A stretch of 64,000 nucleotides of DNA from a virus: positions 31,506 through 95,505 of the IMG/VR virus record IMGVR_UViG_3300032323_000939; one strand, written 5' to 3'. Positions within the stretch are counted from its first letter, which is position 1; each line of letters begins with the position of its first letter. The position numbers and the translations under genes are program-made. Under the pieces are notes generated by a model. It saw only the letters and a list, made by a program, of their open reading frames with translations. It did no database searches and was not told the origin of the DNA. This document shows, in pieces, positions 1 through 64,000 of this stretch.

Positions 1-70
1 AACGGGTCAGCAACCGCAACTGCTAAATCTACCCATTCTGAGCCAGTGTAAACTTGTGCTGACTTGTAGG

Positions 71-724: not shown

Positions 725-789
725 TTAACTTCCTCTCAGACCTATCGGTCTATTTTCTCTTGTTTGCCCCTTATTTACTTCCTGAACTC

Positions 790-4969: not shown

Positions 4970-4976
4970 TGTCTAG

Positions 4977-8410: not shown

Positions 8411-8546
8411 CAGTACTCCTTCCATATCTATTCTTGGCTATCTCTAACCAGTTATTTCTTTCTCTTTTAGACAAAATCTTTATGTCTTCTAGAGTCCAAC
8501 CTTCGTACAAGTGCGTTAATGCTGCCCACTCAGAGAATAGGCGCAT
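8403..8546 (-). CDS. tail assembly chaperone, downstream (GT/E'-like) segment, 47 aa
   Basis: translated by hand: MRLFSEWAALTHLYEGWTLEDIKILSKRERNNWLEIAKNRYGRSTDG; GW..E/D I..L...ER..W pattern; +1 frame relative to the upstream chaperone. Confidence 0.7.
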   Translation of the reverse strand: MRLFSEWAALTHLYEGWTLEDIKILSKRERNNWLEIAKNRYGRSTDG

Positions 8547-8559
8547 GTAGTGCGTTACG

Positions 8560-9369: not shown

Positions 9370-9386
9370 TATTTTCCTTTGTTAGA

Positions 9387-10016
9387 TTATGCTGGGAATG
9401 CTGCTGCTGAAGTAGTTAAGTTTGTTGCCCAGTTAACATCAAAGCCCTCATGGACTAGTGTCATTTGTTCAACAAACAGAGCGTTGTCTCCAGCATTTAG
9501 ATCAGAGTATGCCACAGAAGTTGGCCAGCAGTTATACACGTTAAAGCGCATCGCTACGTGGTCTGTGTCTGCTGGAGTATTACTGTCTGGAGTAGAACCT
9601 GGAATTGGGTGAGACAAAACTGCAATCTCTAGTTCGCAACGGAAATTCTCACCACGAGCACGGGTTGAACCTCCACCTTGAACTGTTGCAAACAAGTTTC
9701 TCATCCACTCCCAGTTTTGATTTGTTCCAAGAATTACACCACGTTGCAGTGTGATAGGAGCAAATGTAGTTTGTCCTGGAATCTGGTGAACGGTTGTGTT
9801 GTATCCACCTTCACGGTAAGGAATAGAGTCTGTTGTAACAGCCATTCCTGATATAGATGTAAAGCCTAGAGTTGCAGTTCCCAAGTTCTTTGTTGCAGTA
9901 CTTGTAGCCGCAGCACCAGTTGCTGTACTTGTTAATGGTTTAAACGTAACTAAAAATCTAAAGTTACGTAATGGATCGGTAATTAATGATGACCGATTGT
10001 TAATGATTGTAGGCAT
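9387..10016 (-). CDS. tail tube protein (T4 gp19-like)
   Basis: 'DPLRNFRFLV', 'IPYREGG...HQIPG...PITLQRGV', 'NCWPT...SDLNA...VEQMTLVHEG'. Confidence 0.93.
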   Translation of the reverse strand: MPTIINNRSSLITDPLRNFRFLVTFKPLTSTATGAAATSTATKNLGTATLGFTSISGMAVTTDSIPYREGGYNTTVHQIPGQTTFAPITLQRGVILGTNQNWEWMRNLFATVQGGGSTRARGENFRCELEIAVLSHPIPGSTPDSNTPADTDHVAMRFNVYNCWPTSVAYSDLNAGDNALFVEQMTLVHEGFDVNWATNLTTSAAAFPA

Positions 10017-10036
10017 TTATTTATTTCTCCTTCGGA

Positions 10037-34178: not shown

Positions 34179-35768
34179 TTAGAAAAAAGGATTACTAGAG
34201 GCTACAACTTCTGGCATTACTAAATCTTGAGTTAAAGAACAAGCAATAGATAAACTATCAACAAAATCGTCATGTGCGTAGGATTCATCGGGCGCAGCCA
34301 CTAAAAAGTTGGGTCCTTTATACTGAACTTCGGCATCGACCATCTGTTGGTAGAAACGTTTCCAGGTACGAAGGCGCCTAGTTTTTGCGTGAGAAGGCCA
34401 AGAAATCATCTTTCGTTGAATTAGTGCCTGCAGGTGTTTCCATCTCTTTGATTGTTCAGATGGACTGGATGTTAAAGACATCACCTCTGCTCTAGGAAGA
34501 AGTAGTTTTAATCGTTGCGCTACTGCATCCCCAACACCGTTTGCATCTACCCCAACTGCAAGGACATCGTAGTTACTTAAGAAGTTTACAATTTGAAAGT
34601 ATTGTTCTTCCCAATCATCGCCCTGCATCTCTAACCAATTTAAAACTCTATGATCAAAATAACCAAACTCGTCAGGGCGATCCCAATCAACCCAAACAAT
34701 AGTAACAACTGTACTGTCAGTTTTACGAGCGGGGTCAATACCGACAACAACTGGGGTCTTGTGCCATACCTTAACAAGTTCTTGAGAAGTGTCACCCAAG
34801 TCATCCATAATCGTAGAAGTAACAAACATTCCTCTTTCTAGTAGCCATTTGCAGTTATAAGACATTTGAAATTCGTCAGAGTCCTCTCCAATACGAAGCA
34901 TCTCTTTACGAATAAACTTTTCATAGTTAGCATTAAATTTTGCTACATCTTTCCAGTCCCATTGAAAATGATTTTGTCTATTTCCTTTGGTTGTTTGACG
35001 CCTACGGTTTAATTGAATAGAACGATAAAAATTATTCTTACTTGTTGTTGGAGTACCAGTCTTAACCATTGTTCCTGCATAGTAAGCCAACATAGGGGAT
35101 ATAGACTTAGATACAACAAAGTCATCAGCCTCTTGACACTCATCAATAACAATCAAATGAAAAGACTTAGACTCAATCTTTGCACGAGGGTTAGCGGTCA
35201 TCATAGTAATCGTTGACCCAGATTTCTTTAGTTTAATCTGACGAGTAACTCCGCCTACACGAGCAGTAGCATCATCAATCTCAGGATCACCCATAATGTC
35301 TAATGCTCTTTCAGAGGTTAAACGGCTTACAGCACGACCAAACAATGTCTCAACCTGAGATTCAGTAGGAGCAAATAATCCGACCCATAATCCATCTTTA
35401 AATTTTCCTAATAAATCAGGGTATAACTTTGCAAGACGTGGAAGTAGAACCATAAGTGTTGCTACTGTGTCGGCAACAGTTTCTGATTTTCCTGACTGAC
35501 GTGAAGCCAGCGCAGTTACTTCTTCACCATCGTTAATAATTACAGATTCAATAATACGACGGGCTAAAGGTTTTTGATAAGGGTGCAGGTCATGTCCTAC
35601 TAGGACCTTTAAAAAGTCCATAATTTTATCAATTAATTTTTCAACAAATTGTTGCGACAACTCATCCAGTTGTTCATCGGCTGGACCGTCATCCGTAGGT
35701 TTTTCATCTTGTTGATAAAACTCTGGATTAATTTCTTCAAACTTGTCTTCGTCGTGTTCGGATTCCAT
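34179..35768 (-). CDS. terL: terminase large subunit
   Basis: Walker A 'SRQSGKSE', Walker B 'LIVIDECQ', 'TGTP', nuclease 'GIDPAR' and 'HDDFVDS'. Confidence 0.93.
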   Translation of the reverse strand: MESEHDEDKFEEINPEFYQQDEKPTDDGPADEQLDELSQQFVEKLIDKIMDFLKVLVGHDLHPYQKPLARRIIESVIINDGEEVTALASRQSGKSETVADTVATLMVLLPRLAKLYPDLLGKFKDGLWVGLFAPTESQVETLFGRAVSRLTSERALDIMGDPEIDDATARVGGVTRQIKLKKSGSTITMMTANPRAKIESKSFHLIVIDECQEADDFVVSKSISPMLAYYAGTMVKTGTPTTSKNNFYRSIQLNRRRQTTKGNRQNHFQWDWKDVAKFNANYEKFIRKEMLRIGEDSDEFQMSYNCKWLLERGMFVTSTIMDDLGDTSQELVKVWHKTPVVVGIDPARKTDSTVVTIVWVDWDRPDEFGYFDHRVLNWLEMQGDDWEEQYFQIVNFLSNYDVLAVGVDANGVGDAVAQRLKLLLPRAEVMSLTSSPSEQSKRWKHLQALIQRKMISWPSHAKTRRLRTWKRFYQQMVDAEVQYKGPNFLVAAPDESYAHDDFVDSLSIACSLTQDLVMPEVVASSNPFF

Positions 35769-50075: not shown

Positions 50076-50343
50076 CTGGTAATCCTACTCTCTATATATA
50101 CCGTAAAAGAGTACAAGAAAATAAATACTATGGCGAATTAGATACTCCACCAGACTGCAGGGGCGCCCTCTGGATGCTCTCTGACCCATTTGGCATGCAT
50201 GATATTGACAAATGTCCAGTCGATATCGTGATTTTCTCGCTTACGCTCCTGCTCAACGAGCATATCCCACAGTTCTTCACTCATAGGGCCCATTCTACGA
50301 CCCTTTCGGCTACTGCTTAAGGCCAAACCCCTCAACCATGCCT

Positions 50344-50353
50344 CTCACCTGGC
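50344..50353 (+). repeat. CTCACCTGGC direct repeat, left copy
   Basis: identical 10-mer at 62431..62440; both sit at the edges of the site-depleted block. Confidence 0.55.
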
Positions 50354-50765
50354 CGTTCCTTCTGTGATTTTGACTTAAGGGTGGGGGGGTTTCCAAATAA
50401 TTATGGTGTTAACACCTTGCCCCTGACTATTAATCAGGTGCGAACTGGTTAACATGAGCGTAATTACCAAGTGTTCCACTTTGCTTGATGACGAATTGAT
50501 GACGAGATACTTTGCGAGTTCGGCTACTGCTGGAATTGCTGGCAATCTTGTGCGACCACAACCAGCCCACCAGCCAACTCTCCGAGTTGTTATCAGGTCA
50601 TTGTGTAATTACTAGCCATGTATCAAAACAATATGAACATATCAATCAGCCACAGGTATATCTATCTCTTATATCTATCTATATATAAATGATAGTAATG
50701 ATCTATTTTTAATATATCTAAGGGGTGCTACGCCCCCCTTTGAAACCCCCCAACTAATAAAGGGG

Positions 50766-51137
50766 CTATTCCTTTTCTAAATACTCAACCGCTTTGCGTA
50801 ATACATTCGGGTCATCTCTCAACATTCCAATCGCCCTATTACAGTTGTGGCATAACCAGCCACGCACCTTGCCAGTTCGGTGATCGTGGTCAATCGCTAA
50901 TCCCTTTGTGGTGTCGTGGTCATTCACTCCGCAGATCGCACACTTGTAATCTTGGTTCTCTTTCAATATCAATAACTCTTGGAATGGCACTCCATAAATC
51001 TTTGCCAATCTTTGTGGTCGCTTCTTTTTTTGCCGACAAGCACCGCAGGTATTTCGTAGATAGCCATAACCAGTTAATTCAAAAAGAGTTAACTCCTTTT
51101 CAAACTGGCACTCATTACAAATTTTGGTTTCGGACAT
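50766..51137 (-). CDS. endonuclease VII-type HNH nuclease
   Basis: 'QDYKCAICG...LAIDHDH.TGKVRGWLCHNCN.AIG...DD...L.KA.EYL'. Confidence 0.88.
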   Translation of the reverse strand: MSETKICNECQFEKELTLFELTGYGYLRNTCGACRQKKKRPQRLAKIYGVPFQELLILKENQDYKCAICGVNDHDTTKGLAIDHDHRTGKVRGWLCHNCNRAIGMLRDDPNVLRKAVEYLEKE

Positions 51138-51179
51138 AACCGCTAAATCTAATTGGCTTTTAATACTTAGGCGAATTGC

Positions 51180-51477
51180 TGGACTAACTCGACAGCGAAC
51201 TAACTAACTTAGTTCGACAGCGACAGCGAGAGTTCCGAGTTAGTTGCGAACTAACTATCTATTCATTCCAAGAGTTAGTTCCCCACTAACTCGCATCTAC
51301 CACCGCCACCGCCACCAATAGTTAGTTCCAAGCCCCCAGCCCCAGTTCGACCCCCCACGCTCAGGCTCTCACGCTCAGACCCCCCAAATCGGGCTTCTAA
51401 GCCCCCTCTCAGGCTCTTACCCCCATTCTTGGGGCAATCACCCCAGCCCAGCCCCGATCAGCCAGCCCAGCCCCAGC
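51180..51477. repeat. AACTAACT/AGTTAGTT boxes and C-rich low-complexity tract
   Basis: palindrome AGTTAGTT-GCG-AACTAACT at 51238..51256, repeated CGACAG, CACCGC, CCCAG units. Confidence 0.7.
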
Positions 51478-51682
51478 GTGGAACACGCTCAATCGGGCAA
51501 ATCGGACATTCTTGCCACTATAAGCAGGTGGTCATGGTCAACTGGATTTTCTGCTACGATCAGCCTTGTTCCGATCAATTCATAGGTCATCAGACCGCCT
51601 CTTGTTTTGAGAAGTTGATTAGCGAACTTGTAATTTTAAAACTACATACGGACTAAAAAAATCTCGATCAAACGATCAGTTA

Positions 51683-52089
51683 TGGCAATTAGTTATTGCC
51701 GTTCAATTAAAAATGGTTTGCGTGTAGCAACCTTGAACTATCTGATTAGTAATTAAATCTGATGAGATCACTTGGAGTGGCGATAACCAGTTTATTTAAC
51801 TAAATAAATTGCGAGCGTTCTACAAAACATCAGACTAACAATTAAGAAATTAATTGTGTATAGAGATTAGTTTTAGGCAACTATTCTTGGAAATAAAAAA
51901 TAACTAACTATGGATTGTTCTCTACTAGTGAGATGCCGACAGTATCCAATCTGATCTAAGCACAATGAAATTAGTTATCTAGTAATTAGAGAATGGCTTA
52001 TGTGTTTTTTGCGATCACTAATAACTACTTGCGCCTTAGCAACGCTACTTATTAGTGATCGTGATGAATACATAAATAAATGTATTCAA
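51683..52089 (+). ncRNA. candidate large structured RNA / leader
   Basis: ORF-free region with at least five hairpins, including a 14-bp stem and a GAAA tetraloop stem. Confidence 0.4.
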
Positions 52090-52183
52090 TACAACTTAAT
52101 ACAGTTCAACTTGATTATCTATTAACAATTAAATATCAATCTATCTATCAATTCCTTCCCCCCTACATAAAAGGAATACAAAA

Positions 52184-52372
52184 ATGAAAACACAAACATT
52201 CGCCAATACAAAGGGCGAAATTGTCGCAACTGGAACTATCAAACCAAATCTAATTGACTTGGTGCTATCTGACGGAACTCGTTTCTTTTCAACTCGTTCT
52301 GATAATTACTCGCTTGATGTTTTGCGAAACTTAAACATCTCCAAAATAGTTAAGGATATAAATGGAAAATAA
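52184..52372 (+). CDS. hypothetical protein
   Basis: 62 aa, AAAGGA RBS. Confidence 0.65.
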   Translation: MKTQTFANTKGEIVATGTIKPNLIDLVLSDGTRFFSTRSDNYSLDVLRNLNISKIVKDINGK

Positions 52373-52649
52373 AAAACTAGTCGTTGACGATCTAACTTTT
52401 GATGAAGTTGGTTTGCTCTATACATCAATGAAAGTGATGATCGCAAAAATGAACGAACTGGAAGTTCCTGAGGAAATGATTGAAATGGCAATTCCAGTAT
52501 TTAAGAAACTAGAAATTGTGTTTGAAAACAAACATAATGAACGAGATCAATTCATTGAATTAATAAATGAACTTGATCTTGATGATCTACAAATCGCATC
52601 AGCGATTATTGCTAAAAATCCTGATGCTGAAATACCTGAATACAAATAA
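52362..52649 (+). CDS. hypothetical acidic protein
   Basis: 95 aa, TAAGGA RBS. Confidence 0.7.
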   Translation: MENKKLVVDDLTFDEVGLLYTSMKVMIAKMNELEVPEEMIEMAIPVFKKLEIVFENKHNERDQFIELINELDLDDLQIASAIIAKNPDAEIPEYK

Positions 52650-52745
52650 ATAAGTTTGTGTTAGTGGTTATTAATGGCTACCACTAACACAATTCAATTC
52701 CCCAGTAATACAAACCCAAACAACAAATAGAAAAGGAAAATAAAA

Positions 52746-53612
52746 ATGACTACATCAACAACTAAATCCTTGTTCGTTCCAACATTGGAACAAACAGGTC
52801 ATTACATTGAGCGCACCTTTGCTGGTGGCATTAACGAAACTCAGATGTATGACTTCGCATTAGAAAACAAAATGAATGTTTTGTTAAGTGGTGATGCTGG
52901 AACTGGTAAAACAACTTCTAGCATGGCTTACGCATCAAAGCGCAGAATGAACTTCTTTGCCGTTCCTTCTAACAACGCCATTGATTTCACACAATTAGTT
53001 GGTGGCTTGTTCCCTGATGAGAATGGAAAACTAAAGTGGATTGACGGCGCAATCACAAAGATTGTTCGTGAAGGTGGTTTGTTATTAATTAACGAATTAA
53101 ATAACGCACCTAAAAACTTATCGCAATACTTGATGAGTTTGTTAGATGATCGCCGATCAATTACTTTAATGAGCCACGATAACGAAGTTATACATGCTCA
53201 CCCTGATCTATTAGTTGTTGCTGATATGAACCCAAATTATCGTGGCACACAATTACTAAACGAAGCATGGAAAGATCGCTTCGAGATCAAACTAACTTAC
53301 TCATACGATACGAAAATTGAAAAGCAAATTATCAAATCCAGTTCATTACTGGAACTTGCGAATGGTATGCGTTCAACATCTCGTATTGATGAGGGCTCAT
53401 CATCACCTTCAACAATCTTTGAAACACCAGTATCAACTCGTATCTTAAAAACATTCGAGAAACTTGCTAAGGGTCTTTCTTATGATTTTGCTAGTGATGT
53501 TTTCGTTAACAACTTCTCTGATGACGAAAAGCCAGCAGTTCGTATGTTGCTAGAAGGCAACGACTTCAACATCAAATCCGATCTCGGATTACTTGAAACA
53601 ACAAACGCTTAG
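52746..53612 (+). CDS. MoxR-type AAA+ ATPase (CbbQ/NorQ/CobS-like)
   Basis: Walker A 'GDAGTGKT', Walker B variant 'LLINE', 'MNPNYRGT..LNEA.KDRF'. Confidence 0.88.
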   Translation: MTTSTTKSLFVPTLEQTGHYIERTFAGGINETQMYDFALENKMNVLLSGDAGTGKTTSSMAYASKRRMNFFAVPSNNAIDFTQLVGGLFPDENGKLKWIDGAITKIVREGGLLLINELNNAPKNLSQYLMSLLDDRRSITLMSHDNEVIHAHPDLLVVADMNPNYRGTQLLNEAWKDRFEIKLTYSYDTKIEKQIIKSSSLLELANGMRSTSRIDEGSSSPSTIFETPVSTRILKTFEKLAKGLSYDFASDVFVNNFSDDEKPAVRMLLEGNDFNIKSDLGLLETTNA

Positions 53613-53626
53613 TTAGGAATAAACAA

Positions 53627-55492
53627 ATGGATTATCCATTCATAGATGTAGGTGTCGCATTAGCGCAATCTGATCTAAAGAAAAAACAAGAAACAGAAGC
53701 GGAATTAAAACGCCAGCGAATTGAACGCTTTGCTCAGTTCTTTGGTCGAGTTAATTCAGCACTAACACTTCGCAAGGTGCGTGTAAAAGTTGAGAACTCA
53801 ACTATTGGCGCACCTGCTTGGTCAGGTGCTAGTGAAGTTGTTTTCAATTCACGATTACTTGGCAATCTAAATACGGCAAAAGAAATTGCTGGACTTCGTG
53901 GTTTAGATTTACACGAAGTTAGCCACATTCTTTATACACCAAGAGAAGGTTCTGAAATCTTTGAATGGTGTCGTGATAATGATGTTCTATTTGCTTACAA
54001 CGCATTAGACGATCAACGAATTGAAACTTTATTTACAACTCGTTATCCGTCAACGATTGATTGGTTCACATCAACAATTCTTATTCACTTTGTTGATGAC
54101 CCAAAAGCGTTTGAAACTTCTTATGGTTTATTGCGTGGTCGGCAATATCTACCAACTGAATTGTTGGCACGATCACGCAACGCATATAAGTTCCAAGATC
54201 AATTAGATGAAATCTGCGACATTGTTGACCAGTATCGGTTATTAACTTTTCCTGCTGATACTGAAATCGCAAAAGATTTAATTCGCAGATTTGATGCGTT
54301 GATGCCAAAACAAAATATGCCCCAAGAAGGATTAGCGGATTGGGAAAAAGATTTAATTGGTAAAGAAGGCAACAAAGTTGTTGTCGCAATTAAATCTCCA
54401 TTCGGTCATGGTGAGCGACCACATGAAGGTATCGAGAGTTCAGCAGTATCTCGACCAGTTGCGCCAATTCAACAGAAGCGTGATCTTGAAAGAGTTAAAT
54501 CTCAACCAGTAAAAGATGATGCGAAATTAGCAGAGCAACTTAAATCAGAACCAGTTATTGAAATTGATTTAACTGGTGATGAAGGTAGCGGTGTTGGTAA
54601 TGCTTCATCAGATCAAAACACTAGGGCTCTTAACGATATGTTGAGCGACATTCTTAGCGATCAAAAAATTGCTAACGAAATCAACGACATCATCAGACAA
54701 ATTGGTGGCTTACCTTCTCTTGCTACCAATAATTCTAAAGAGCCAAGAAAATCACGATACGAATTACAAACTCCTGATGCTAAAACTTTTCAAGCATCTT
54801 TATCTTTCGGTAGAGAGTTGGAAAGATTAAAAGCAACATTCGAACCTGCTTGGGATAAATACCAATCACAAGGTCGTTTGAAAGCGGAGAGATATTTGCG
54901 TGGTGATGATCTTGATGTTGTGTTCGATCAATGGTCAGAAGGCAAAGATGATGCTACTGAAATTGAATGTGTGATCTTGTTAGATAACTCAGGTTCAATG
55001 AGTGGTCGTAAAGAAATCTCTGCTTATCGTGCCATGTATGCGATTAAAAAAGCATTAGATCGCATTAACGCTAATACAACAGTTCTTACCTTTAACACAT
55101 CTACGAATGTTTTGTATCGTGCTGATGAAAGAGCAAACAATTCAATTCGTAATGCTGGTAGCACAGGTGGAACTGACCCACAGGAAGCAATCGAATACGC
55201 CACAAAACTTCTTGCTGAAACTGAGAAGCCAGTTCGTATTTTCTTTGTAATTACTGACGGAGAATGGAGTGGTGATTTAACAATTCAACATGATGCCATT
55301 AAAAAAATGGCTAACGCTGGAGTGCTAACTTCATTCGCTTACATAGCAGATGATAATGAGAGCGTTCAGTTAACACCTGAAAAATCTCATTACTGCGAAA
55401 TTAGTGCGGTTGTAAATAACCCACTTAATTTAATTGGTATGTCTAAATCAATCGTTAAGTATGCGATTGGTCGCAGACTAGTTAATAACTAA
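53627..55492 (+). CDS. vWA-domain protein (CobT-like MoxR partner) with N-terminal HExxH
   Basis: 'HEVSH', 'NALDDQRIE', MIDAS 'LLDNSGSM', 'GGT', 'ITDG'. Confidence 0.85.
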   Translation: MDYPFIDVGVALAQSDLKKKQETEAELKRQRIERFAQFFGRVNSALTLRKVRVKVENSTIGAPAWSGASEVVFNSRLLGNLNTAKEIAGLRGLDLHEVSHILYTPREGSEIFEWCRDNDVLFAYNALDDQRIETLFTTRYPSTIDWFTSTILIHFVDDPKAFETSYGLLRGRQYLPTELLARSRNAYKFQDQLDEICDIVDQYRLLTFPADTEIAKDLIRRFDALMPKQNMPQEGLADWEKDLIGKEGNKVVVAIKSPFGHGERPHEGIESSAVSRPVAPIQQKRDLERVKSQPVKDDAKLAEQLKSEPVIEIDLTGDEGSGVGNASSDQNTRALNDMLSDILSDQKIANEINDIIRQIGGLPSLATNNSKEPRKSRYELQTPDAKTFQASLSFGRELERLKATFEPAWDKYQSQGRLKAERYLRGDDLDVVFDQWSEGKDDATEIECVILLDNSGSMSGRKEISAYRAMYAIKKALDRINANTTVLTFNTSTNVLYRADERANNSIRNAGSTGGTDPQEAIEYATKLLAETEKPVRIFFVITDGEWSGDLTIQHDAIKKMANAGVLTSFAYIADDNESVQLTPEKSHYCEISAVVNNPLNLIGMSKSIVKYAIGRRLVNN

Positions 55493-55559
55493 CAAACAAA
55501 TGTGGTGGAACATGATCGGGGGGTTATGTTCCACCCTTCTAACTAAGGAGAATAAATAA

Positions 55560-56180
55560 ATGAAATCAACCGACTTAAAAACTGGTGTTGAATACGCAGT
55601 AATTCCAGCATGGGATTATTCATCACAAGATAAGAAAAATCCTGATCGTGTTCAACGCAACCATGTTGCTAGAGCAAAGTTAGCATCACTTGATAAATAT
55701 GAATACAAAGTTTATCGAGCCAATAGCGCAACAGATACAAACTTCGCACCAGCAAAACAAGGTTCACGAAACATTGGTTATCTTGTTAGTTCAGATGACT
55801 TTATGAACGCTGGACAAACTCCCTCAACTTTATTTTGGTTGGCTCGACCACAAGATATTGTTGCTTCTTATTCTGATCTTGAACCCAAATGGGCGCAACG
55901 AGAACTTGATGAAAAACTCGCAAGAGAAAAACATGAGGCAGAGCAACAAGAGCGTGAACGCAAACAGAGAGAAGCAAGGGAATACACCGAAAGAGTTTCG
56001 GCTTCTTTACTGGCATCTCTTAAATCAATTCTTGGTGATCGTGCTAATAGCATTAGCGTTGATACAAGAAGTCGCAGAGTAGGTGATAACTATATTGAAA
56101 TTGCCGAAATGAATATAGATTTAAAAACAATGGGAATACTTATCGAGAAAGTTCTCGAAGCAAAGGACTTGGTGGGGTAA
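55560..56180 (+). CDS. hypothetical protein
   Basis: 206 aa, TAAGGAG RBS. Confidence 0.75.
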   Translation: MKSTDLKTGVEYAVIPAWDYSSQDKKNPDRVQRNHVARAKLASLDKYEYKVYRANSATDTNFAPAKQGSRNIGYLVSSDDFMNAGQTPSTLFWLARPQDIVASYSDLEPKWAQRELDEKLAREKHEAEQQERERKQREAREYTERVSASLLASLKSILGDRANSISVDTRSRRVGDNYIEIAEMNIDLKTMGILIEKVLEAKDLVG

Positions 56181-56911
56181 TGACTACACAGACAAAAGAT
56201 AGTTTTTACTTGGAACGCTTAAAGCGTTTCTATGAAACCAATAATCACTACCGATCAACAGTTGGTGATAGCCATAACAGTATTTGGGGTTTGTCTAGCA
56301 GGACAAAACTTGAACACTATTGTTATTTTGAAGTTAAAGATATTGTGTTTCACGAACAAGAATATAAAGGGTTTCAATTAATAGTAAAAGAAACTCAATT
56401 CATAGTGAAAACAATTCTTGATAAGAATGGTTTGCCTTGTAAAGAGGCTTGGCTAGATGTAAAAGATATTGGTGGTTATATTGACCAGCAAGATCAATCC
56501 ACCTTTGTTGCGTTCGCATGGGAGATTGGTGGTAATTACGACACCTTTGCTAATTTAAACTGGGTTGGAATGGGCGCAATTATCAATCAATTAGGCACTA
56601 GTAATTCATTAAAGAAAACTACTAAAACTGCTCAAAAGAAACTGGACATTCTTGCCCAAGTTAACGCAGTTAAAGATACTTTAATTCAAATTGCTGATGA
56701 ACGCCTTAATTACAATGAAGCAGTAAATCCATTCAATGTAATTGTGGGCGATCAGGTGTGGATTGAGGCTCATGGGCGCAAGAGAAAAGGTGTTATTACT
56801 TCAACCACAGGTAGCAGATTTAATGTTGCCTATTTAACACCTTCTAACCATGACGATCTCAAATATAAAACACTTGGGATACCACACTTGTTTGTAAAGG
56901 AGAGCCCGTAA
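56180..56911 (+). CDS. hypothetical protein, SH3/KOW-like C-terminus
   Basis: 243 aa; 'VGDQVWIEAHGRKRKGVI'. Confidence 0.7.
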   Translation: MTTQTKDSFYLERLKRFYETNNHYRSTVGDSHNSIWGLSSRTKLEHYCYFEVKDIVFHEQEYKGFQLIVKETQFIVKTILDKNGLPCKEAWLDVKDIGGYIDQQDQSTFVAFAWEIGGNYDTFANLNWVGMGAIINQLGTSNSLKKTTKTAQKKLDILAQVNAVKDTLIQIADERLNYNEAVNPFNVIVGDQVWIEAHGRKRKGVITSTTGSRFNVAYLTPSNHDDLKYKTLGIPHLFVKESP

Positions 56912-57318
56912 TAAAAACATGTAGCACTTGTGGGATTGAAAAACCAGTAGATCAATTCCAAAAACACCCGACAGGTAAGGGCGGTATTCATCATAAATGC
57001 CACCCTTGTTTGTTGGAATACAAACGCAACCAATATAAAAACGCTAAATTAGATATTAAGAATTGGATTTACGATTACTTATTAATTAATTCATGCGTTG
57101 ATTGCGGTGAAACTAATCCTATGAAACTGGAGTTCGATCATAGAAGCGACAAATCTTTTCATATTGGAAAGTCATTCATAGGTAAATCTAAAGATATTGA
57201 AGTGATTAAATCCGAGATCGCAAAGTGTGATGTTCGGTGCGCTTCATGCCACAGGGTAAAAACTCACAAGGAACAAAACACTTGGAAATATCTAATACAT
57301 AAAGAACGGAATACATAA
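56911..57318 (+). CDS. HNH endonuclease-like protein (non-canonical or mutated start)
   Basis: 'KTCSTCG.EK....F', 'CVDCGE...LEFDH', 'EIAKCDVRCASCHR'; frame open back to ATA at 56911. Confidence 0.65.
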   Translation: MKTCSTCGIEKPVDQFQKHPTGKGGIHHKCHPCLLEYKRNQYKNAKLDIKNWIYDYLLINSCVDCGETNPMKLEFDHRSDKSFHIGKSFIGKSKDIEVIKSEIAKCDVRCASCHRVKTHKEQNTWKYLIHKERNT

Positions 57319-57477
57319 ATGAAATCAAAAACTTATTACAAAGTTCGAACTGCGGTGCGTATTCTTTTTTGGAGTTCGTTAGCCGTTGGAATTTATTATT
57401 TAGCAACTCACATCAACTGGGTGGGCGATCACTATTGCTGGGGAACTATTGAACAATGTTTCTTAGGGGGTAAGTAA
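57319..57477 (+). CDS. small membrane protein, 52 aa
   Basis: MKSKTYYKVRTAVRILFWSSLAVGIYYLATHINW... Confidence 0.6.
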   Translation: MKSKTYYKVRTAVRILFWSSLAVGIYYLATHINWVGDHYCWGTIEQCFLGGK

Positions 57478-57651
57478 ATGGGTTATGTAGAGATTGTTAG
57501 ACGAGTTCAAGATCACGAACTAGATACTTGCGATCAATGCGGTCAAAAGGGCGTTCGAGATAATGGAAAAACAATTACTGATAACTATTCGCAGGACATT
57601 CTTTGGTTCTGCTATAACTGCGTTCAATCACAAAAGAGATCGTTCGCATAA
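57478..57651 (+). CDS. small Zn-finger protein, 57 aa
   Basis: CDQC ... WFCYNC. Confidence 0.6.
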   Translation: MGYVEIVRRVQDHELDTCDQCGQKGVRDNGKTITDNYSQDILWFCYNCVQSQKRSFA

Positions 57652-57663
57652 ATAAATAAATTT

Positions 57664-57801
57664 GTTGAATAGGCGTTAACGCAGGGTTATGTGGGTTTCT
57701 TTCATTCCCCACTCCTTACCTGCGAAGGGCGGTCAAGACTTCCCTTGTTGGTTCACATTCCTTTTGAACAATGGAACGAGCCGTATCTGCGCCTATTCAA
57801 C
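57664..57801 (+). ncRNA. candidate multi-stem small RNA
   Basis: perfect 12-bp closing stem GTTGAATAGGCG/CGCCTATTCAAC enclosing three hairpins. Confidence 0.55.
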
Positions 57802-57826
57802 TTCCTAATTAGAACTGGAGTTAGTT

Positions 57827-57988
57827 ATGGAACGAGATCAAAAAATAGTTGTAATGCGCTTAATGGGTTTCAACTTAAAACAAGTTGCTCAATTTTTTGG
57901 GTTAACTAGATTAGAAGTTCGCAAAATTGAAAGTAATTGGCTACAAAATAAAGCCACTAAATCAGAAATAGGAGTAAAAGATGTATGA
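57827..57988 (+). CDS. sigma70 region-4-like HTH protein, 53 aa
   Basis: MERDQKIVVMRLMGFNLKQVAQFFGLTRLEVRKIE...; GGAG RBS. Confidence 0.6.
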   Translation: MERDQKIVVMRLMGFNLKQVAQFFGLTRLEVRKIESNWLQNKATKSEIGVKDV

Positions 57989-58187
57989 CGAAGTGCTTGA
58001 TGAAAGTTTATTCGATCAAACATTCGACACCGACCCACTATGTAATTGTGAGTGCGGTTGTGAAGTTCCAGTATCAGGACAATGTGTTGATTGCTCAGAA
58101 AACAACGGACATCAAAATAACAATGGGTTTCCAAAATACGATCAACTTAACGAAGCAACTATCAAATACTTAAAGGGGAAAAAATGA
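57981..58187 (+). CDS. small Cys-rich protein
   Basis: 'CNCECGC......CVDC'. Confidence 0.6.
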   Translation: MYDEVLDESLFDQTFDTDPLCNCECGCEVPVSGQCVDCSENNGHQNNNGFPKYDQLNEATIKYLKGKK

Positions 58188-58516
58188 GCGACAACTTAAA
58201 CCAAGATCAAAAAGATTTAATTAATTCGGTTAAATTCGCAACTGAGTTTTTAAAGATTATTCGTGGATTTAAAGTAGATCAACAACGCACCGATAGCCTT
58301 CCAGTTGAGGTTAAAGAATATATAGCGAATGAGCATCTAAATACTTTAATTGCCGATCATGGATTAGAGCCTGAGATGTTAGTTTGGGGATTAGTTCACA
58401 TAATTGAAGTCTTATTACGAACAAGTGAAATAAGTCCTGATGATCTTGTAATAATTATGGAACAGTATGTAGATTTTGTTAAAGATAGACCCGATTATTT
58501 TGGAGAGGATAAATGA
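58184..58516 (+). CDS. hypothetical protein
   Basis: 110 aa, ATGA coupled. Confidence 0.7.
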   Translation: MSDNLNQDQKDLINSVKFATEFLKIIRGFKVDQQRTDSLPVEVKEYIANEHLNTLIADHGLEPEMLVWGLVHIIEVLLRTSEISPDDLVIIMEQYVDFVKDRPDYFGEDK

Positions 58517-58806
58517 GCCAATCAGCACGATTAACAAACAAAGCAATATCTTTATCTATGCCTACACCAAGAAAAATTGATGAAGCACCATGCCAATCAA
58601 CTGACCCTGAAACATTCTTTACTGACCCAACAGAAACAGAAAAGATTGTTTTAGCAAAAACATTTTGCGATAGATGCCAACCAGTAAATAAACATGCTTG
58701 TTTATCTTTCGCATTAAATAACAAAGTTAAATACGGAATTTGGGGTGGACTAACTCCTGATGAAAGACAAACTTTAATTCGCAGACAGAGTAGGAGTAAA
58801 AAATGA
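58513..58806 (+). CDS. whiB: WhiB-family Fe-S transcription factor
   Basis: four Cys 'C...DPETFF...AK.FC.RC.....CL..AL' and 'GIWGGLTPDER'. Confidence 0.92.
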   Translation: MSQSARLTNKAISLSMPTPRKIDEAPCQSTDPETFFTDPTETEKIVLAKTFCDRCQPVNKHACLSFALNNKVKYGIWGGLTPDERQTLIRRQSRSKK

Positions 58807-59041
58807 GATGTAAAGAGTGCGGTGCGATTATTGACTATTCGGGAAGTAATGACGGCATCTACTGGGCTTGCCAAGATTGCGGTGCTAACACAGATAGGGA
58901 ACTTGATTAATGAACTTACCTTACGCAAAAAACCAAGTTGTAATTGAAGTTAGTGGCGGTGTAGCAGAGTTAGTGCGTTGCCCTGACGGAATTGAAGTTG
59001 TAATTATCGATCACGATAACGAAATGAATGGAGAATAATTA

Positions 59042-59524
59042 ATGGTTAATACATTCGTTCCTTATTCAGATTTTGTTAAATCTGCTAAGGCTCTTGATTA
59101 CAGGCGATTAGGTAAACAAAGAGTTGAGGCGTGGCAAATACTTCGAGCCTTGCTTGGATTAACTAAGGGCTGGGTTAATCACCCAGCATCAGTTATGTGG
59201 CGTGGGCATGAGAAGGCTCTATGTGAATATGGAATTGCGATCTGCCAAGAATGGATAGGTCGTGGCTATAAAGACACCATGTTGCCTAATTTTGTGGCTA
59301 TACATGCCACGCTACCTGATACTGGATTGCCGTTTTGGATTGGTAATTCGGAACTTCACAATTCGCATCAATCAAACTTAAAGCGCAAAGATGCTGAGTA
59401 TTACCAATTCAATGTGCCAACAGACATGCCCTATCTATGGGCAGATGCTCAAAATAAAACTACAAAGTGGGGAACTAAACCTGATGAAAATAAATCTAAA
59501 AAGAAAGTTAGGAAAAAACTATGA
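59042..59524 (+). CDS. pyrimidine-dimer DNA glycosylase/endonuclease V-like (MSMEG_6728-type)
   Basis: 'TFVPY.DF..SA..LD.RRLGKQRVEA.QI', 'HPA..MW.G', 'SHQSNL.RKD..YY'. Confidence 0.8.
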   Translation: MVNTFVPYSDFVKSAKALDYRRLGKQRVEAWQILRALLGLTKGWVNHPASVMWRGHEKALCEYGIAICQEWIGRGYKDTMLPNFVAIHATLPDTGLPFWIGNSELHNSHQSNLKRKDAEYYQFNVPTDMPYLWADAQNKTTKWGTKPDENKSKKKVRKKL

Positions 59525-59709
59525 GCGATTGGCTTACAAATACCGACATAGCAAAACTAACTGGATTAAAAATAGAAACTCTACATACCTATCGAAGTCG
59601 CAACACCCTTCCCAAACCCGACAAATACATGGGGAGAACTCCAGTTTGGAAACTGGAAACCATAAAGAGTTGGGTATCAGATCGAGAATTGGAGATAACT
59701 AATGACTAA
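59521..59709 (+). CDS. AlpA/excisionase-like HTH protein
   Basis: 'LT..DIA..TGL...TL..Y.....LPKPD...GRTPVW...TI..W'. Confidence 0.75.
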   Translation: MSDWLTNTDIAKLTGLKIETLHTYRSRNTLPKPDKYMGRTPVWKLETIKSWVSDRELEITND

Positions 59710-59724
59710 AAAGGAGATCAAGTA

Positions 59725-60249
59725 ATGGGGTTAGACATGTATCTATACGCAAATAAATACCTCAACAATGAAAATGTAGATCAGATTAAAAAACTAGCAG
59801 GAACTAATAATTTACCTAATCAAAATGGAACTGAAAGTATCTATATCCGACAATTAGTTGGTTATTGGCGCAAAGTTAATGCGGTTCATGGTTGGTTCAT
59901 TAATAAGATTGCTAGTGGCGTTGATGAGTGCCAAGAACTTTATATAAGCAGGGAACAACTAGAACAATTACGACAAGATTGTATTGTTGCGTTGGCTAAT
60001 CCTGAGCGTAATTATGAGATTGAAAATCAAAAAGTTTTTTATCAATTATGCGATTATTTAAACAAATTGGAAACTCCAGTTAATTTAGCAAATTACAATA
60101 ATCCAGTTCCACCAGTTGAAGGATTTTTCTTTGGTGGTAATGAATTAAGCGATTATTACTTTTCGCAACTGGAATACACGATTGATTTAATTACTAACTT
60201 GCTGGAATTAGATGATGATTTCAGTTTTCATTACCAAGCCAGTTGGTAG
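59725..60249 (+). CDS. conserved phage hypothetical protein
   Basis: 'MGLDMYLY', 'YWRK.NA.HGWF', 'GFFFG', 'YQASW'. Confidence 0.75.
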   Translation: MGLDMYLYANKYLNNENVDQIKKLAGTNNLPNQNGTESIYIRQLVGYWRKVNAVHGWFINKIASGVDECQELYISREQLEQLRQDCIVALANPERNYEIENQKVFYQLCDYLNKLETPVNLANYNNPVPPVEGFFFGGNELSDYYFSQLEYTIDLITNLLELDDDFSFHYQASW

Positions 60250-60252
60250 GAA

Positions 60253-60270
60253 CTAACTAACTAACTTTTC
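60253..60270 (+). repeat. 18-bp inverted repeat, left copy
   Basis: CTAACTAACTAACTTTTC is the reverse complement of 62447..62464. Confidence 0.7.
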
Positions 60271-60330
60271 TGGCGAATTCCAAAGTTAGTCCAAGCGCAT
60301 AAGCCAGCAGTTGCCTAGTCCGTATGTAAA

Positions 60331-60365
60331 GCCCCTAGCCCAATTCGGGTTAGGGGTTATTTTTT
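60331..60365 (+). terminator. rho-independent terminator
   Basis: GCCCCTAGCCC-AATTC-GGGTTAGGGGT followed by TATTTTTT. Confidence 0.75.
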
Positions 60366-60416
60366 GACCTGAAACCTACTGGTGAGTATACTCGCCAGTA
60401 GATTACTCGCCAGTAG
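60364..60416 (+). promoter_or_regulatory. sigma70-type promoter of the recombinase, overlapped by three 13-bp operator-like repeats
   Basis: TTGACC-N17-TATACT; TACTCRCCAGTAG at 60376-88 (inverted), 60389-401 and 60404-16. Confidence 0.7.
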
Positions 60417-60427
60417 GGGGGAAACTT

Positions 60428-61738
60428 ATGGCGTATGTATTGAAGCGTAATGGCAGATTTACTGGCTATTACAGGCATGGTAATAAGCGTTTATCCGTTG
60501 GCACATGGGCTAATAAGACCGAAGCCATGTATCACGCCATTCAAGCGGAGAAGCATGGCTCTATTGCCCCTTCAAAGGCTAATTTGAAGGTGGTTGATTT
60601 TGTAGATGATTGGCTGGCGGTTGCTGACCTCATGCCGATCACAAAAAAGGGCTATAAGTCGGTTTTAACTAGATTTGTAATTCCAGCCATAGGTGATCGG
60701 GAACTAACTTCGCTGAAGCCTTCAGAGTTAGTTAAGTTAATTGATGATCTGAAATTAAAGGGCGTGAAGCCAGCAACGCTTAATCAAGTTAAGGCATCTC
60801 TCGGCTCTATGTTTTCAAAGTTAGTTAGTGCTGGAAGGATTGAAGTTAATCCCACGCATGGAATTAAGATCAAGGTCAATCATGCCGACATCTCAAATGT
60901 GGTCGAACCTGATGAGTTCAAGGAGATAGTTAAGCACCTGCCGAATGAGGGGGCGCAGTTATTTGCTCAATTCCTAGTAGCAAGTGGTTGCCGATTTGGA
61001 GAAGCCACAGAAGTAAGAGCCAAAGACATAAATTTCAAAACTGGCGAAGTATTTATCCAAAGGCGAGTTAGTGAGATTGGCAGGGAATACAACAAGGGCA
61101 AGAGATTTCTAGTCGTAGATGCCACCAAATCAGGGCATAAGCGGTCAATAATGGTAAGTAAAGCCCTATTACAACAGGTAAAAGCGTATGTCCAAGCAAA
61201 AGGCATAGCAAAAGATGATTTGTTGTTTTCAAGGACATTGATAGCACCTAAGGCTATGGTTAAGGCAGATATTCGTGGCGCAAAGTCCTCTCGACCATTC
61301 GAGAAAGACGGAAAAAAGTTCCAGCATGGAACTCTCTACTCCTATACACATGGGGGTTGTCGGTGCGAAGGGTGTAGGCAAGCGGTAGGAAACCACCGCA
61401 AGGCACGAGCCCTAGCAGAAGGCATAGCAGAAGCAAAGCCATACCAAAAGGCGAAGCAGAAGCAGGTGAGTTTCATCAACCAAACGAGCCACTTGCCACG
61501 AAATGTCTGGAGAACTATCTGGAACAAAGCAATAGATAAGTCCGCAATCGGTTGGTTGCCTAGAACTCACGACTTACGACATGCCAACGCTACCCAGTTG
61601 TTAAAGAACGGGGTAGATGTCCATGAAGTAAAAGAGCGACTAGGACATCAATCGATCAAGACGACAGAGCGATACCTACATCGCCTTCGTTCACACCAGT
61701 CAAAGGCATCTGAAAGTGCCAACGACTATTTGGAGTGA
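60428..61738 (+). CDS. tyrosine recombinase/integrase
   Basis: 'SGCRFGE', 'TKS', 'HDLRH', 'LGHQSIKTTERY' catalytic residues. Confidence 0.92.
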   Translation: MAYVLKRNGRFTGYYRHGNKRLSVGTWANKTEAMYHAIQAEKHGSIAPSKANLKVVDFVDDWLAVADLMPITKKGYKSVLTRFVIPAIGDRELTSLKPSELVKLIDDLKLKGVKPATLNQVKASLGSMFSKLVSAGRIEVNPTHGIKIKVNHADISNVVEPDEFKEIVKHLPNEGAQLFAQFLVASGCRFGEATEVRAKDINFKTGEVFIQRRVSEIGREYNKGKRFLVVDATKSGHKRSIMVSKALLQQVKAYVQAKGIAKDDLLFSRTLIAPKAMVKADIRGAKSSRPFEKDGKKFQHGTLYSYTHGGCRCEGCRQAVGNHRKARALAEGIAEAKPYQKAKQKQVSFINQTSHLPRNVWRTIWNKAIDKSAIGWLPRTHDLRHANATQLLKNGVDVHEVKERLGHQSIKTTERYLHRLRSHQSKASESANDYLE

Positions 61739-62382
61739 TAATGAAAGCAAAAGCAAAGATAGAAAAAGCCGAAGCAGATGTTAAAGCACTAGCAAAAGCA
61801 TCAGCAAAGGTAATGGCAGAGCGTAAACGCTTAGCCAAAGCAAGAATAAAGGCACTAGGAATAGGTGGAGTTATTTTGGTTCTAGCAACTGGTTCATTGG
61901 CGTTTGGAACTTCCATAGCCTTTGCGCCAACTAAAGCCGAAGCAATATCCGCAGTTCACACAAAGAAAGAAGCAACTCTGTTGAAGTATCACAATGCCGA
62001 TACTTTGACTGACTTACATCTAGTTGAGTTGCTCTCTGCCGTAGGCTTCAAAGGTCAAGACCTTAAAGAAGCGTGGGCAGTTGTTATGAAAGAGTCAACT
62101 GGCAATCCTCTCAATCACAATGGAAATAGAAAGACAGGAGATAACTCCTACGGACTATTTCAAATTAATATGATTGATGGTTTAGGAGTAGCAAGACGGG
62201 AAAAATTTGGTTTAGAAAGTAATGCTGAATTGTTTAATCCTGTGGTCAATGCTCAGATTGCTTATCACATGAGTAATGGTGGTAAGAATTGGAGCGCATG
62301 GAAAGGAATGACGCCAAGAACTAAAGAGTGGTTGGCTAAGTTCCCAATAGACATGAAAGACAGAGTAGAAGCAAAATCATAA
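61735..62382 (+). CDS. membrane-anchored lysozyme-like / lytic transglycosylase
   Basis: TM segment, then 'AWAVVMKES.G', 'SYGLFQINM', 'NAQIAY.MS.GG.NWSAW'. Confidence 0.85.
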   Translation: MIMKAKAKIEKAEADVKALAKASAKVMAERKRLAKARIKALGIGGVILVLATGSLAFGTSIAFAPTKAEAISAVHTKKEATLLKYHNADTLTDLHLVELLSAVGFKGQDLKEAWAVVMKESTGNPLNHNGNRKTGDNSYGLFQINMIDGLGVARREKFGLESNAELFNPVVNAQIAYHMSNGGKNWSAWKGMTPRTKEWLAKFPIDMKDRVEAKS

Positions 62383-62430
62383 GCATAAGGAGAAGCCCTA
62401 TCAGAAGTGGTAGGGCTATCTCTGAACTAA

Positions 62431-62464
62431 CTCACCTGGCAGCCAGGAAAAGTTAGTTAGTTAG
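62431..62464 (+). repeat. CTCACCTGGC right copy plus 18-bp inverted repeat right copy
   Basis: CTCACCTGGC at 62431-40 inside CCTGGC-A-GCCAGG palindrome; GAAAAGTTAGTTAGTTAG at 62447-64. Confidence 0.65.
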
Positions 62465-62473
62465 GGGGCAGGT

Positions 62474-62839
62474 GTGGATAATCAACAATTCACTAACTTA
62501 TACGACCCTGTTCATCAGGGCTATCTAAAACATAAACAGAAGCAATACCAAGACTGGCATGATGATAGACCATATACAGAAGAATTATTTTGGAATACCT
62601 TAATTCACTTAGGTTGGCGTCAAAACCATAAAGAACAAAGACTTAAAGATGAGGTTAATCTTATTTTACAATTAATTTTAGAATGCCCTGATTGCAGTAA
62701 AGCAATCAAGACAGTTAATACCTCTAGCGTAGGTCAGGGTTCAAATACAGTAATGAATTTGTTAAAGGGCAATGAAGAGATAGAAAGACACCAGCAGTAC
62801 TATTGCGAAAGCAAAGCCATAGCAGAAGACAAGCAATAG
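62474..62839 (+). CDS. hypothetical protein
   Basis: 121 aa with CPDC. Confidence 0.55.
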   Translation: MDNQQFTNLYDPVHQGYLKHKQKQYQDWHDDRPYTEELFWNTLIHLGWRQNHKEQRLKDEVNLILQLILECPDCSKAIKTVNTSSVGQGSNTVMNLLKGNEEIERHQQYYCESKAIAEDKQ

Positions 62840-62857: not shown

Positions 62858-64000
62858 CTATTGATTGTCTTTAATTAGCCTAACTTCACACGCATCAGTA
62901 GTGCAGTAAGCCTCACCAATAGCATCAGATGCCATACCAGCATACACACCAGCCAAATCAATTGGGAATAATTTCATTACTCCTTCGCTTTCATATTCTT
63001 CAGCAGTAATTTGTGTGTAAGGCATTTGAGGATAGGTAGCATTACCAGAAGGTAAGAAAGAAACCGTCTTTAGTTGACCATCGTACATATGCAAAGCCGT
63101 ACCAATAGCCGAAGCCTCTGTCTCTGGATTAAAAGAAATAGTTACAGACACAGAGTTGTCTGACCAGTATCTCTGAGCAGTAGCAGCAAGTGCCATCTTC
63201 TCATAGATGCTTACATCTTTTTCAGATCTCTTTGCTTTAGATTTAATAGGGAAGAATACAACTGAGGTAGTTTCAGGAGACTCAGATGCTGGTTCTACAC
63301 GATAGTTTGCCATCTTAAACAGTGGAAGCATTGGATCAGAGTTAGCAAAACGAATAGCACGATTAAAATACTCACCACCAACAGTCCAGTGAACTCCTGG
63401 ACTTTCACCAGCAAGGATAGAGACAGTTCCTGATGGCTTAACTGTGGTCATCTTAATTGATTCACGGATACCCAACCACTCTGAGTAGTTTGTATCGTAT
63501 TGTTTAATAGTTTGATATCCCTCATCCATCCATTGACGAAGAACTGGAAGACCCTTGTTATCAGCAAAGTTAGCCACACCCGATACTGAAGTACCAATGC
63601 GACGATTGCGTTGCATAATTGCGTTTGTCTCTTCCCAGTGAGTAGGAAGTAAAGTAACAGTTTTAGCGTATAGATAAGCAAACTTAAGTGTGCGTTTAAA
63701 ATCTTCAAGATTGTCATGACGATTTAAGTAAGTCTCTACCAAGGTGCAACACTCAAAAGACTCTAGTGATTGTTCAGCACATGGGTTGTATCCAGCAATA
63801 CGCCAATCTTTGTTATTAATTGGATCTGCAAGACGACCGTATTGTTTTGATATATCCATCCAAATAACCCCTGGCTCACCATTACGGGCAATGCCATCAA
63901 TTATGTTGTCTAAGTTATCTCCTACATTTACAGAGACAGAGTTGTTAGACATCCATGCCCAGCCTGGGTTTGATGGATCATACGAATTTCTATCAGGGAA
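62858..64000 (-). CDS. nrdJ: class II (adenosylcobalamin-dependent) ribonucleotide reductase, 5' part outside the window
   Basis: 'GEPG', 'NPCAEQ', 'RNRRIG', 'TTVKPSGTVS', C-terminal 'CTTDAC'. Confidence 0.9.
   Translation of the reverse strand, partial: FPDRNSYDPSNPGWAWMSNNSVSVNVGDNLDNIIDGIARNGEPGVIWMDISKQYGRLADPINNKDWRIAGYNPCAEQSLESFECCTLVETYLNRHDNLEDFKRTLKFAYLYAKTVTLLPTHWEETNAIMQRNRRIGTSVSGVANFADNKGLPVLRQWMDEGYQTIKQYDTNYSEWLGIRESIKMTTVKPSGTVSILAGESPGVHWTVGGEYFNRAIRFANSDPMLPLFKMANYRVEPASESPETTSVVFFPIKSKAKRSEKDVSIYEKMALAATAQRYWSDNSVSVTISFNPETEASAIGTALHMYDGQLKTVSFLPSGNATYPQMPYTQITAEEYESEGVMKLFPIDLAGVYAGMASDAIGEAYCTTDACEVRLIKDNQ

Follow-up and report, generated by a model that had tools for sequence, protein, structure and literature searches.

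The final 64 kb of IMG/VR record IMGVR_UViG_3300032323_000939 (positions 31,506 to 95,505 of 95,505 bp; hereafter the window, in whose coordinates all positions are given) contain a sharply bounded block of ~12.1 kb, at 50354 to 62434 on the + strand, that is devoid of about 20 restriction-type words, whereas the remaining 83 kb of the genome keeps more than 2000 such sites. The reading that we favour, with a confidence only a little above even, is that this block is the leading early arm of a phage genome, purged because it would be exposed in the host cell before a block-encoded protection acts. The phage is best explained as an uncultured contractile-tailed freshwater actinophage, and the block as its native early arm. 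Its terminase, portal, capsid, sheath, tube and baseplate J proteins show 35-61% identity to those of Streptomyces myoviruses (BRock, LuckySocke), the block carries a WhiB gene, and the sequencing runs that hold phage DNA are lake or freshwater metagenomes.

The original prediction, made by reading the letters, had reported that GTAC, TGCA, ACGT, GGCC, CCWGG and GCNGC are missing from the block. Our counts confirm this and widen it. Between 50354 and 62430 none of the six words occurs, where the rate in the remaining DNA would predict 56 GTAC, 72 TGCA, 34 ACGT, 11.5 GGCC, 19 CCWGG and ~35 GCNGC. GTNAC, GGATC, GAGAC, ACSGT, CASTG, GGATG, TGACA, GGWCC, GGGAC, CGWCG and GGAGG are likewise at zero, as is GAAGA (45 expected), and a single copy of GANTC is left. 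GGATC is absent although GATC is enriched in the block, with 5.5 per kb as against 3.0 per kb outside it. The asymmetric words are missing in both orientations, which points to a constraint on double-stranded DNA and not on RNA. AGCT, CCGG and CGCG are at zero across the whole genome.

The limits of the purge are abrupt. Between 50344 and 62440 the only matches to the six words lie inside two copies of the 10-mer CTCACCTGGC (CCTGG at 50348 and GGCC at 50351 in the left copy, CCTGG at 62435 in the right one). The last sites to the left are a TGCA at 50196 and a GGGCCC at ~50286, and to the right the sites return just where they had been reported, with CCTGG at 62435, GCAGC at 62439, CCAGG at 62443, TGCA at 62693 and GTAC at 62797. 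A sliding count, which had been proposed as a check, bears out the depletion. When 12-kb segments were moved round the circular genome and 4- and 5-mers were counted if they had zero copies and an expectation of at least 10, the segment on the block gave 28 such words, overlapping segments gave fewer, and those elsewhere in the 95.4-kb circle gave 0. The terminal repeat of T5 (1-10219), scored likewise against the next 40 kb of T5, gave 0 words.

The purge is a property of the family. In every relative, however distant, the homologous arm is without CCWGG, GCNGC, GGWCC, CASTG and GGATG, all of which are found in the flanks, and GGGAC is also missing from the arm in nearly all of them. To this core the clade of the window adds GTAC, ACGT, GGCC, GANTC, GTNAC, GAAGA, GAGAC, GGATC, CGWCG and TGACA, and within this clade some members have purged TGCA and others, such as L032, retain it. 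The set of avoided words varies further among lineages: in the arm of L014, TCGA is strongly depleted too (4 sites, all near the right end, versus 12 in the shorter flank), and the arms of L035 and L024 are without ATAT and ACAGC and retain GTAC or TGCA. On these sequence comparisons, the same arm looks to have been under a stronger and fast-changing restriction pressure throughout the history of the family, as in an ongoing arms race. GATC is wholly missing genome-wide in L017, L018, L024 and L027, and reaches 15 per kb in the block of L035. In the latter block, this corresponds to 186 GATC in 12 kb, about 4 times the expectation from composition.

Does the block belong to this genome? The original prediction had left room for an integrated satellite-like element with a different host history. 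Such an element would be bounded by 10-bp att-like direct repeats and would carry its own integrase. The restriction of CTCACCTGGC to the two edges and the presence of an integrase and of a Xis-like helix-turn-helix (HTH) protein inside the block speak for such an element. However, the block occupies the same position in all relatives. More than 40 related contigs from IMG/VR and JGI have the same genes between the same flanks, the small-gene region to the left and the reductase to the right, and this holds down to ~35-43% protein identity, the most distant relative with the arm in place being a 99.8-kb contig whose MoxR and VWA proteins are 43% and 34% identical to those of the window. A search seeded from a left-flank gene, which could reveal block-less genomes, again found MoxR and VWA adjoining, and no empty site was found among the more than 40 related contigs, those of this search included. 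Nor was a reliable 50343|62441 deletion junction seen in Logan contigs; a single 49513>63611 joint in run X7 was discounted, as it comes from one contig with a side of only 21 nt. One locus (L063), on a 302-kb contig, was considered as a possible prophage and set aside, as this locus has no other similarity to the window. The edges of the relatives have just ACCTGG or CCTGG in common, the right copy of the 10-mer lies in a structured element, and no close homologue of the integrase was found in the bacterial genomes searched.

The composition of the block points the same way. The block shares the genome-wide avoidance of AGCT, CCGG and CGCG, and its codon preferences match the ones used elsewhere in the genome, apart from shifts (less GTA, AGA and TCT, more CGA) that fit the missing words. 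Relatives retain some of the words lost here, and about one third of a relative's sites in orthologous genes overlap only codons for residues that are unchanged in the window; with L021 as the relative, 70 of 209 sites are of this kind. These sites were therefore removed without amino-acid change. As judged from synteny and sequence, then, the block is not foreign and represents a native arm, and we regard an integrated satellite as extremely unlikely. The ribosome-binding sequences of the block genes (GGGG, AAGGA) differ from those used in the rest of the genome because GGAGG/CCTCC, for which ~10 copies would be expected, is missing from the block.

The record is rated 100% complete by CheckV and has a GC content of 41%. 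Its first and last 123 bases are identical (window 63878-64000, genome 1-123) and lie within the gene for ribonucleotide reductase. This makes the record a circular assembly of 95,382 bp whose "direct terminal repeat" label is an artefact of assembly overlap, not a virion end. Nearly all genes are on the - strand: leftwards from 50335 there are small genes, the terminase (34179-35768, - strand), then portal, capsid, sheath, tube, baseplate and replication genes, and finally the reductase. A + strand arm at ~50.35-62.84 kb is the exception, so that coding switches strand at the left edge of the block, as had been noted.

Where would the ends of the packaged genome lie? LuckySocke, whose terminase is 52% identical, has a 344-bp terminal repeat in the non-coding region between its main arm and a ~10-kb opposite-strand terminal arm, and the gene order of our phage is collinear with LuckySocke when the circle is opened at 50.3 kb. 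By this analogy, the termini would lie within 50.28-50.7 kb, and the block would be a terminal arm transcribed inward. The terminal repeat of LuckySocke itself shows no similarity to the edges of the block in the window.

The original prediction had also put forward, as one of two readings, that the block is a long terminal repeat. In this scenario a T5-like direct repeat of ~12 kb would have been collapsed in the assembly. Its length would be close to that of the T5 repeat (10,219 bp, annotated as first-step-transfer DNA), the assembly is circular, and a 12.9-kb IMG/VR contig (L034) consists essentially of the block with short flanks. The depth of the metagenomic contigs argues against it. 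Read data from 22 runs were available as Logan contigs, so that depth is at contig level and comes from metagenomes of unknown size fraction. In the source run, X1, a 16,729-bp contig (44959-61687) joins 5.4 kb of left flank to 11.3 kb of block at a mean depth of 15, and contigs outside the block have depths of 14.5-16.2; a block at twofold depth would have given ~25 for this contig. In an independent run from 2016 (X3), block contigs have depths of 67-109 and the left flank ~100-150. The contig-level coverage thus gives no twofold depth and is 1x across the left edge, although concatemers in infected cells would also give 1x. Contigs run through both edges, and the closest cultured relative examined, related through its terminase, has a repeat of only 344 bp. 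We consider a collapsed long repeat very unlikely.

The two edges are marked by conserved elements. On the left, a non-coding divergence region of ~320 bp (50282-50602), conserved in an alignment of 9 relatives, separates the - strand main arm from the + strand block. The left 10-mer (50344-50353) lies in it, as do two GTTAAC boxes, a G-run and, at ~50432-50452, an operator-like palindrome that reads CACCTGA-N7-TCAGGTG in the relatives. The 17-mer CCTGACTATTAATCAGG of this operator in the relatives is present in ~60 related contigs, and many other matches to the 17-mer are due to chance. The region is a candidate for the early-promoter site and, on the LuckySocke analogy, for the physical end of the genome. 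It is followed by ~1.8 kb of mostly non-coding DNA rich in repeats and hairpins. On the right, two conserved stem-loops (62390-62457, + strand), recognized by comparison with relatives, close the block exactly at its inner border. Hairpin 1 (62390-62422) shows 2 compensatory pairs, and hairpin 2 (62426-62457, ACTAACT..CCTGG-CAG-CCAGG..AGTTAGT) includes the right 10-mer (62431-62440) and holds the first CCWGG and GCNGC sites to return after the block. The double hairpin is a candidate for an early terminator, a transfer-stop signal or both. Among relatives whose sequence spans an edge, the purge begins at the conserved CTCNNACCTGG region, with the non-coding ...TCAACCATGTCTCNNACCTGG..., and stops at the hairpins just after the SLT gene.

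The 10-mer CTCACCTGGC occurs, as reported, at both edges, and it has exactly two copies in the 95.5-kb genome (50344 and 62431). The proposal that these copies mark terminase cuts, with the recombinase circularising the genome, found no support. The sequence common to the two edges in relatives is 5-6 nt long, the 10-mer pair is specific to this genome, and the distant relative L021 has no ACCTGG or CCTGG word at its right edge. Because the pair is not conserved and the right copy is part of the second stem-loop, we favour neither att sites nor terminase cuts as an interpretation of the 10-mers. What stands of the original reading is thus its core, a first-exposed DNA purged before protection, which the family comparison and the precedents of T5, BF23 and Murciaviruses make the best explanation; the long repeat and the cuts at the 10-mers do not.

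We propose the following course of events. The block would be a set of + strand operons extending from the divergence region (~50.3 kb) to the double hairpin (62.39-62.46 kb), and the packaged genome would have fixed ends in the divergence region, with the block as leading DNA. Entering the cell first, unmethylated and unprotected, the block would meet the host type II enzymes, which would select against their target words there. Its products would then neutralise most of these enzymes, or the rest of the genome would enter later, in a T5-like two-step or a T7-like transcription-paced manner. Entry under protection, or later, would allow the other 83 kb to keep its sites, and only words outside the reach of the protection (AGCT, CCGG, CGCG) would be avoided genome-wide. 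The early unit would end at the double hairpin, which would serve as a terminator and/or a transfer stop. Possible sources of the shield are an acidic 95-aa protein, the MoxR-VWA pair, and two proteins of 206 and 243 aa. We infer here the order of entry, the positions of the termini, and a protective function together with its identity.

No gene for a DNA methyltransferase, ArdA, Ocr, TGT/DpdA, QueC, a hydroxymethylase/ThyA-type enzyme or PurZ, any of which might shield the remaining DNA through a known route, was found in the genome, and a tblastn search with all 16 T5 terminal-repeat proteins, A1 and A2 among them, gave no match to the genome at E 0.1. The shield, if it exists, would therefore be new. 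A stronger version of the proposal, in which two-step delivery is family-wide and a hairpin-delimited 12-kb pre-early segment enters first and encodes a broad shield against at least a dozen type II specificities, seems to us possible, with somewhat less than even chances.

Several observations weigh against the block as a leading arm purged before protection. As no homologue of the T5 pre-early proteins, of Ocr or of ArdA was found, the protection is a hypothesis. T5-like and T7-like phages have been shown to enter stepwise, and we know of no myovirus for which this has been demonstrated. Metagenomic contigs cross the left edge, where an end is expected, and in the ~60 contigs with the operator 17-mer the contig ends do not fall on a single base; they are spread over a hypervariable stretch on the right side of the motif, at distances of 75-500 bp from it. 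The terminal arm of LuckySocke shows a graded 3-5-fold shift in word frequencies and no purge. CGCG is missing from 6-7 kb of flank in the distant relatives L024 and L155 and yet is found in their block, so that the avoided set of the block is not always a superset of that of the flank. Finally, CpG is suppressed in the 83-kb remainder (rho 0.63) as against 0.89 in the block, and six relatives show the same split (0.63-0.77 versus 0.89-1.07). Codon compensation may account for a part of these last two deviations.

Two further explanations accept the purge and dispense with an order of entry. The whole genome could enter together, its greater part shielded in cis by co-injected coat proteins or by an unrecognised modification, and the early arm left bare for transcription. 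This would account for the block-limited purge equally well and would need no stepwise entry in a myovirus, and injected cis-protection has a precedent in DarA/B of P1, as cited in PMC12455610. On the other hand, none of the known modification or methylase genes was found, and there is no known precedent for a coat with one limit only a few bases from a conserved hairpin and the other equally close to a promoter region. We hold this explanation to be unlikely. Alternatively, the arm could have been exchanged by recombination within the family and carry the restriction history of other hosts, with no role for entry order. The differences in avoided words among close relatives would fit such shuffling, as would the dinucleotide signature that the blocks of all relatives have as their own (the CpG split above) and the tolerance of CGCG in some blocks whose flanks are without it. 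It fails, however, to explain why every lineage has this arm as its more purged part and none has the other 83 kb, and why the core set of CCWGG, GCNGC, GGWCC, CASTG and GGATG is block-limited family-wide; moreover, block and rest have common codon preferences. Module shuffling seems to us quite improbable as the origin of the purge, and we retain the leading early arm as the preferred reading.

The leading-arm reading finds its closest precedent in the Demerecviridae T5 and BF23. These phages resist type I, II and III restriction unless sites are present in the first-step-transfer (FST) region, and the early products that make the rest of T5 insensitive are still unidentified (PMC10644984; 10.1101/866236). 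As here, the segment concerned is ~10-12 kb of a ~100-kb genome, with HNH endonucleases and early genes mostly of unknown function, and its inner border has inverted repeats and a long non-coding stretch. The T5 rule, by which sites matter inside the segment only, is matched in our phage by a compositional signature, about 20 words being missing in the block and abundant outside, in the relatives as well. The two systems are not equivalent. The T5 segment is a 10.2-kb terminal repeat, whereas contig depth here is 1x, and it shows 0 purged 4/5-mers versus 28 in the block. Furthermore, unlike T5, this phage has a contractile tail, an actinobacterial host and an integrase in its arm, with no pre-early homologues, and a two-step entry would be an extrapolation from T5.

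Murciaviruses evade a type I system through motif loss from the first-injected region only (PMC12455610). In these and in T7-like phages (the Ocr paradigm), selection likewise acts on the first-entering early DNA, whose genes are read inward and which has a terminator at its end (PMC12455610). These cases concern a single type I motif in small podoviruses, as compared to about 20 short type II-like words over 12 kb here, where Ocr and ArdA are missing. Leading regions of conjugative plasmids, as discussed in PMC12455610, are alike in that the first-entering DNA carries anti-defence genes and is target-depleted, but differ in being plasmids transferred as single strands, not phages. The closest cultured relatives, the Streptomyces myoviruses BRock, LuckySocke, GiJojo and pSt2308 (35-61% identity in terminase, portal, capsid, sheath, tube and baseplate proteins), have the same layout with an opposite-strand terminal arm, and LuckySocke has fixed ends with its 344-bp repeat; the genes of the LuckySocke arm show no homology to the block genes. 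In LuckySocke (OR725497.1, L068), words that contain GAAG, GCAG or CAGCAG are 3-5-fold rarer in the terminal region at ~99-114.5 kb, of which the opposite-strand arm is a part, than in the rest.

The block would thus be an extreme case of leading-region restriction avoidance, family-wide in uncultured lake actinophages. The T5 rule was shown for single enzymes, and the protection of the rest has remained unexplained after 45 years; here the same logic would account for a very large and sharply bounded sequence footprint. If this reading is true, metagenomes could serve to predict leading first-transferred regions and how far exactly they extend, and a broad anti-restriction function would be narrowed to 12 kb and ~20 genes. 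Lineage-specific lists of missing words (here GTAC, TGCA, ACGT, GGCC, CCWGG, GCNGC, GANTC, GAAGA, GTNAC, GGATC, GAGAC, GGATG and further words) would also indicate which restriction specificities uncultured freshwater actinobacteria possess, and could be compared between lakes and strains.

The gene content of the block, ~20 genes in total, agrees with the earlier description of MoxR-like (AAA_5), VWA, WhiB and excisionase-like (HTH_17) proteins and a tyrosine integrase of 436 aa, to which a DenV-like glycosylase, an SLT_3 protein, an endonuclease VII (Endo VII) and an HNH endonuclease can be added. A search with the block for near-identical DNA in 50,697 phage records gave no match, and neither a tRNA nor an Rfam scan of the block had any result. 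The Endo VII/HNH-type gene (50766-51137, - strand; PF02945, E 6.5e-26) lies in a strain-specific insertion (50602-51318) that has no DNA alignment in relatives and yet, like the rest of the block, contains none of the purged words. This insertion is also a place where many metagenome contigs break. The first two conserved genes of the block (52184-52649, + strand) encode a 62-aa protein and the acidic 95-aa protein (52362-52649). The latter has a pI of 4.3 and is fast-evolving, with 30-61% identity among relatives versus ~75-82% for its neighbours. Its AlphaFold model (pLDDT 84) is a generic helical hairpin or bundle, for which Foldseek found no DNA-mimic match in PDB and BFVD, and its candidacy as an anti-restriction protein is speculative.

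Next on the + strand comes a CobS/CobT-like pair (52746-55492; phrog_249) of a MoxR-like AAA+ ATPase (288 aa; PF07728, E 2e-20) and a VWA protein (621 aa; PF13519, E 2.3e-9). The 206-aa and 243-aa proteins (55560-56911, + strand) have no Pfam or PHROG match, and an Atlas search with both was uninformative. They are followed, all on the + strand, by an HNH endonuclease (57010-57318; phrog_2255, E 2.2e-19), the WhiB-family regulator, a marker of an actinobacterial host (58513-58806; PF02467, E 7.3e-18), and, at 59042-59709, the DenV-like pyrimidine-dimer glycosylase (160 aa; PF03013, E 1.9e-19) and the HTH_17/excisionase-like protein (62 aa; phrog_597, E 3e-14; phrog_66, E 8e-5).

The tyrosine integrase (60428-61738, + strand; PF00589, E 1.1e-24; phrog_1, E 2.5e-55) is kept in all relatives at 57-82% identity. 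Among 185,579 bacterial and archaeal species, represented by one genome each, it has no close homologue, the best matches being distant ones in the catalytic domain, and this search did not find the prophage copies expected of a temperate phage. The enzyme could act in lysogeny, resolution or circularisation. The region upstream of int (60330-60424, + strand), conserved in relatives, begins with a strong terminator hairpin (60330-60358), which is followed by a promoter-like TTGACC-17-TATACT (60364-60392) and, overlapping the latter directly upstream of int, 2-3 operator-like palindromic CTACTSRCCAGTAG repeats (60364-60424), which are conserved in relatives as well and could be operators or recombinase-binding sites. 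The last block gene encodes an SLT_3 lysozyme-like protein (61735-62382, + strand; PF18896, E 2.8e-18). The first gene past the block (62474-62839, + strand; 121 aa) is variable among relatives and is not purged, as seen from its TGCA at 62693 and GTAC at 62797.

A perfect inverted repeat of 18 nt, (CTAA)n/(TTAG)n, around int and SLT was considered as an invertible switch and rejected, as the AACTAACT/AGTTAGTT words form local hairpins and their orientation varies among relatives. These hairpins are found in intergenic regions of the block at 51198-51330, 60251-60290 and 62425-62462. The words are concentrated in the block, which holds 19 of their 30 copies in the genome.

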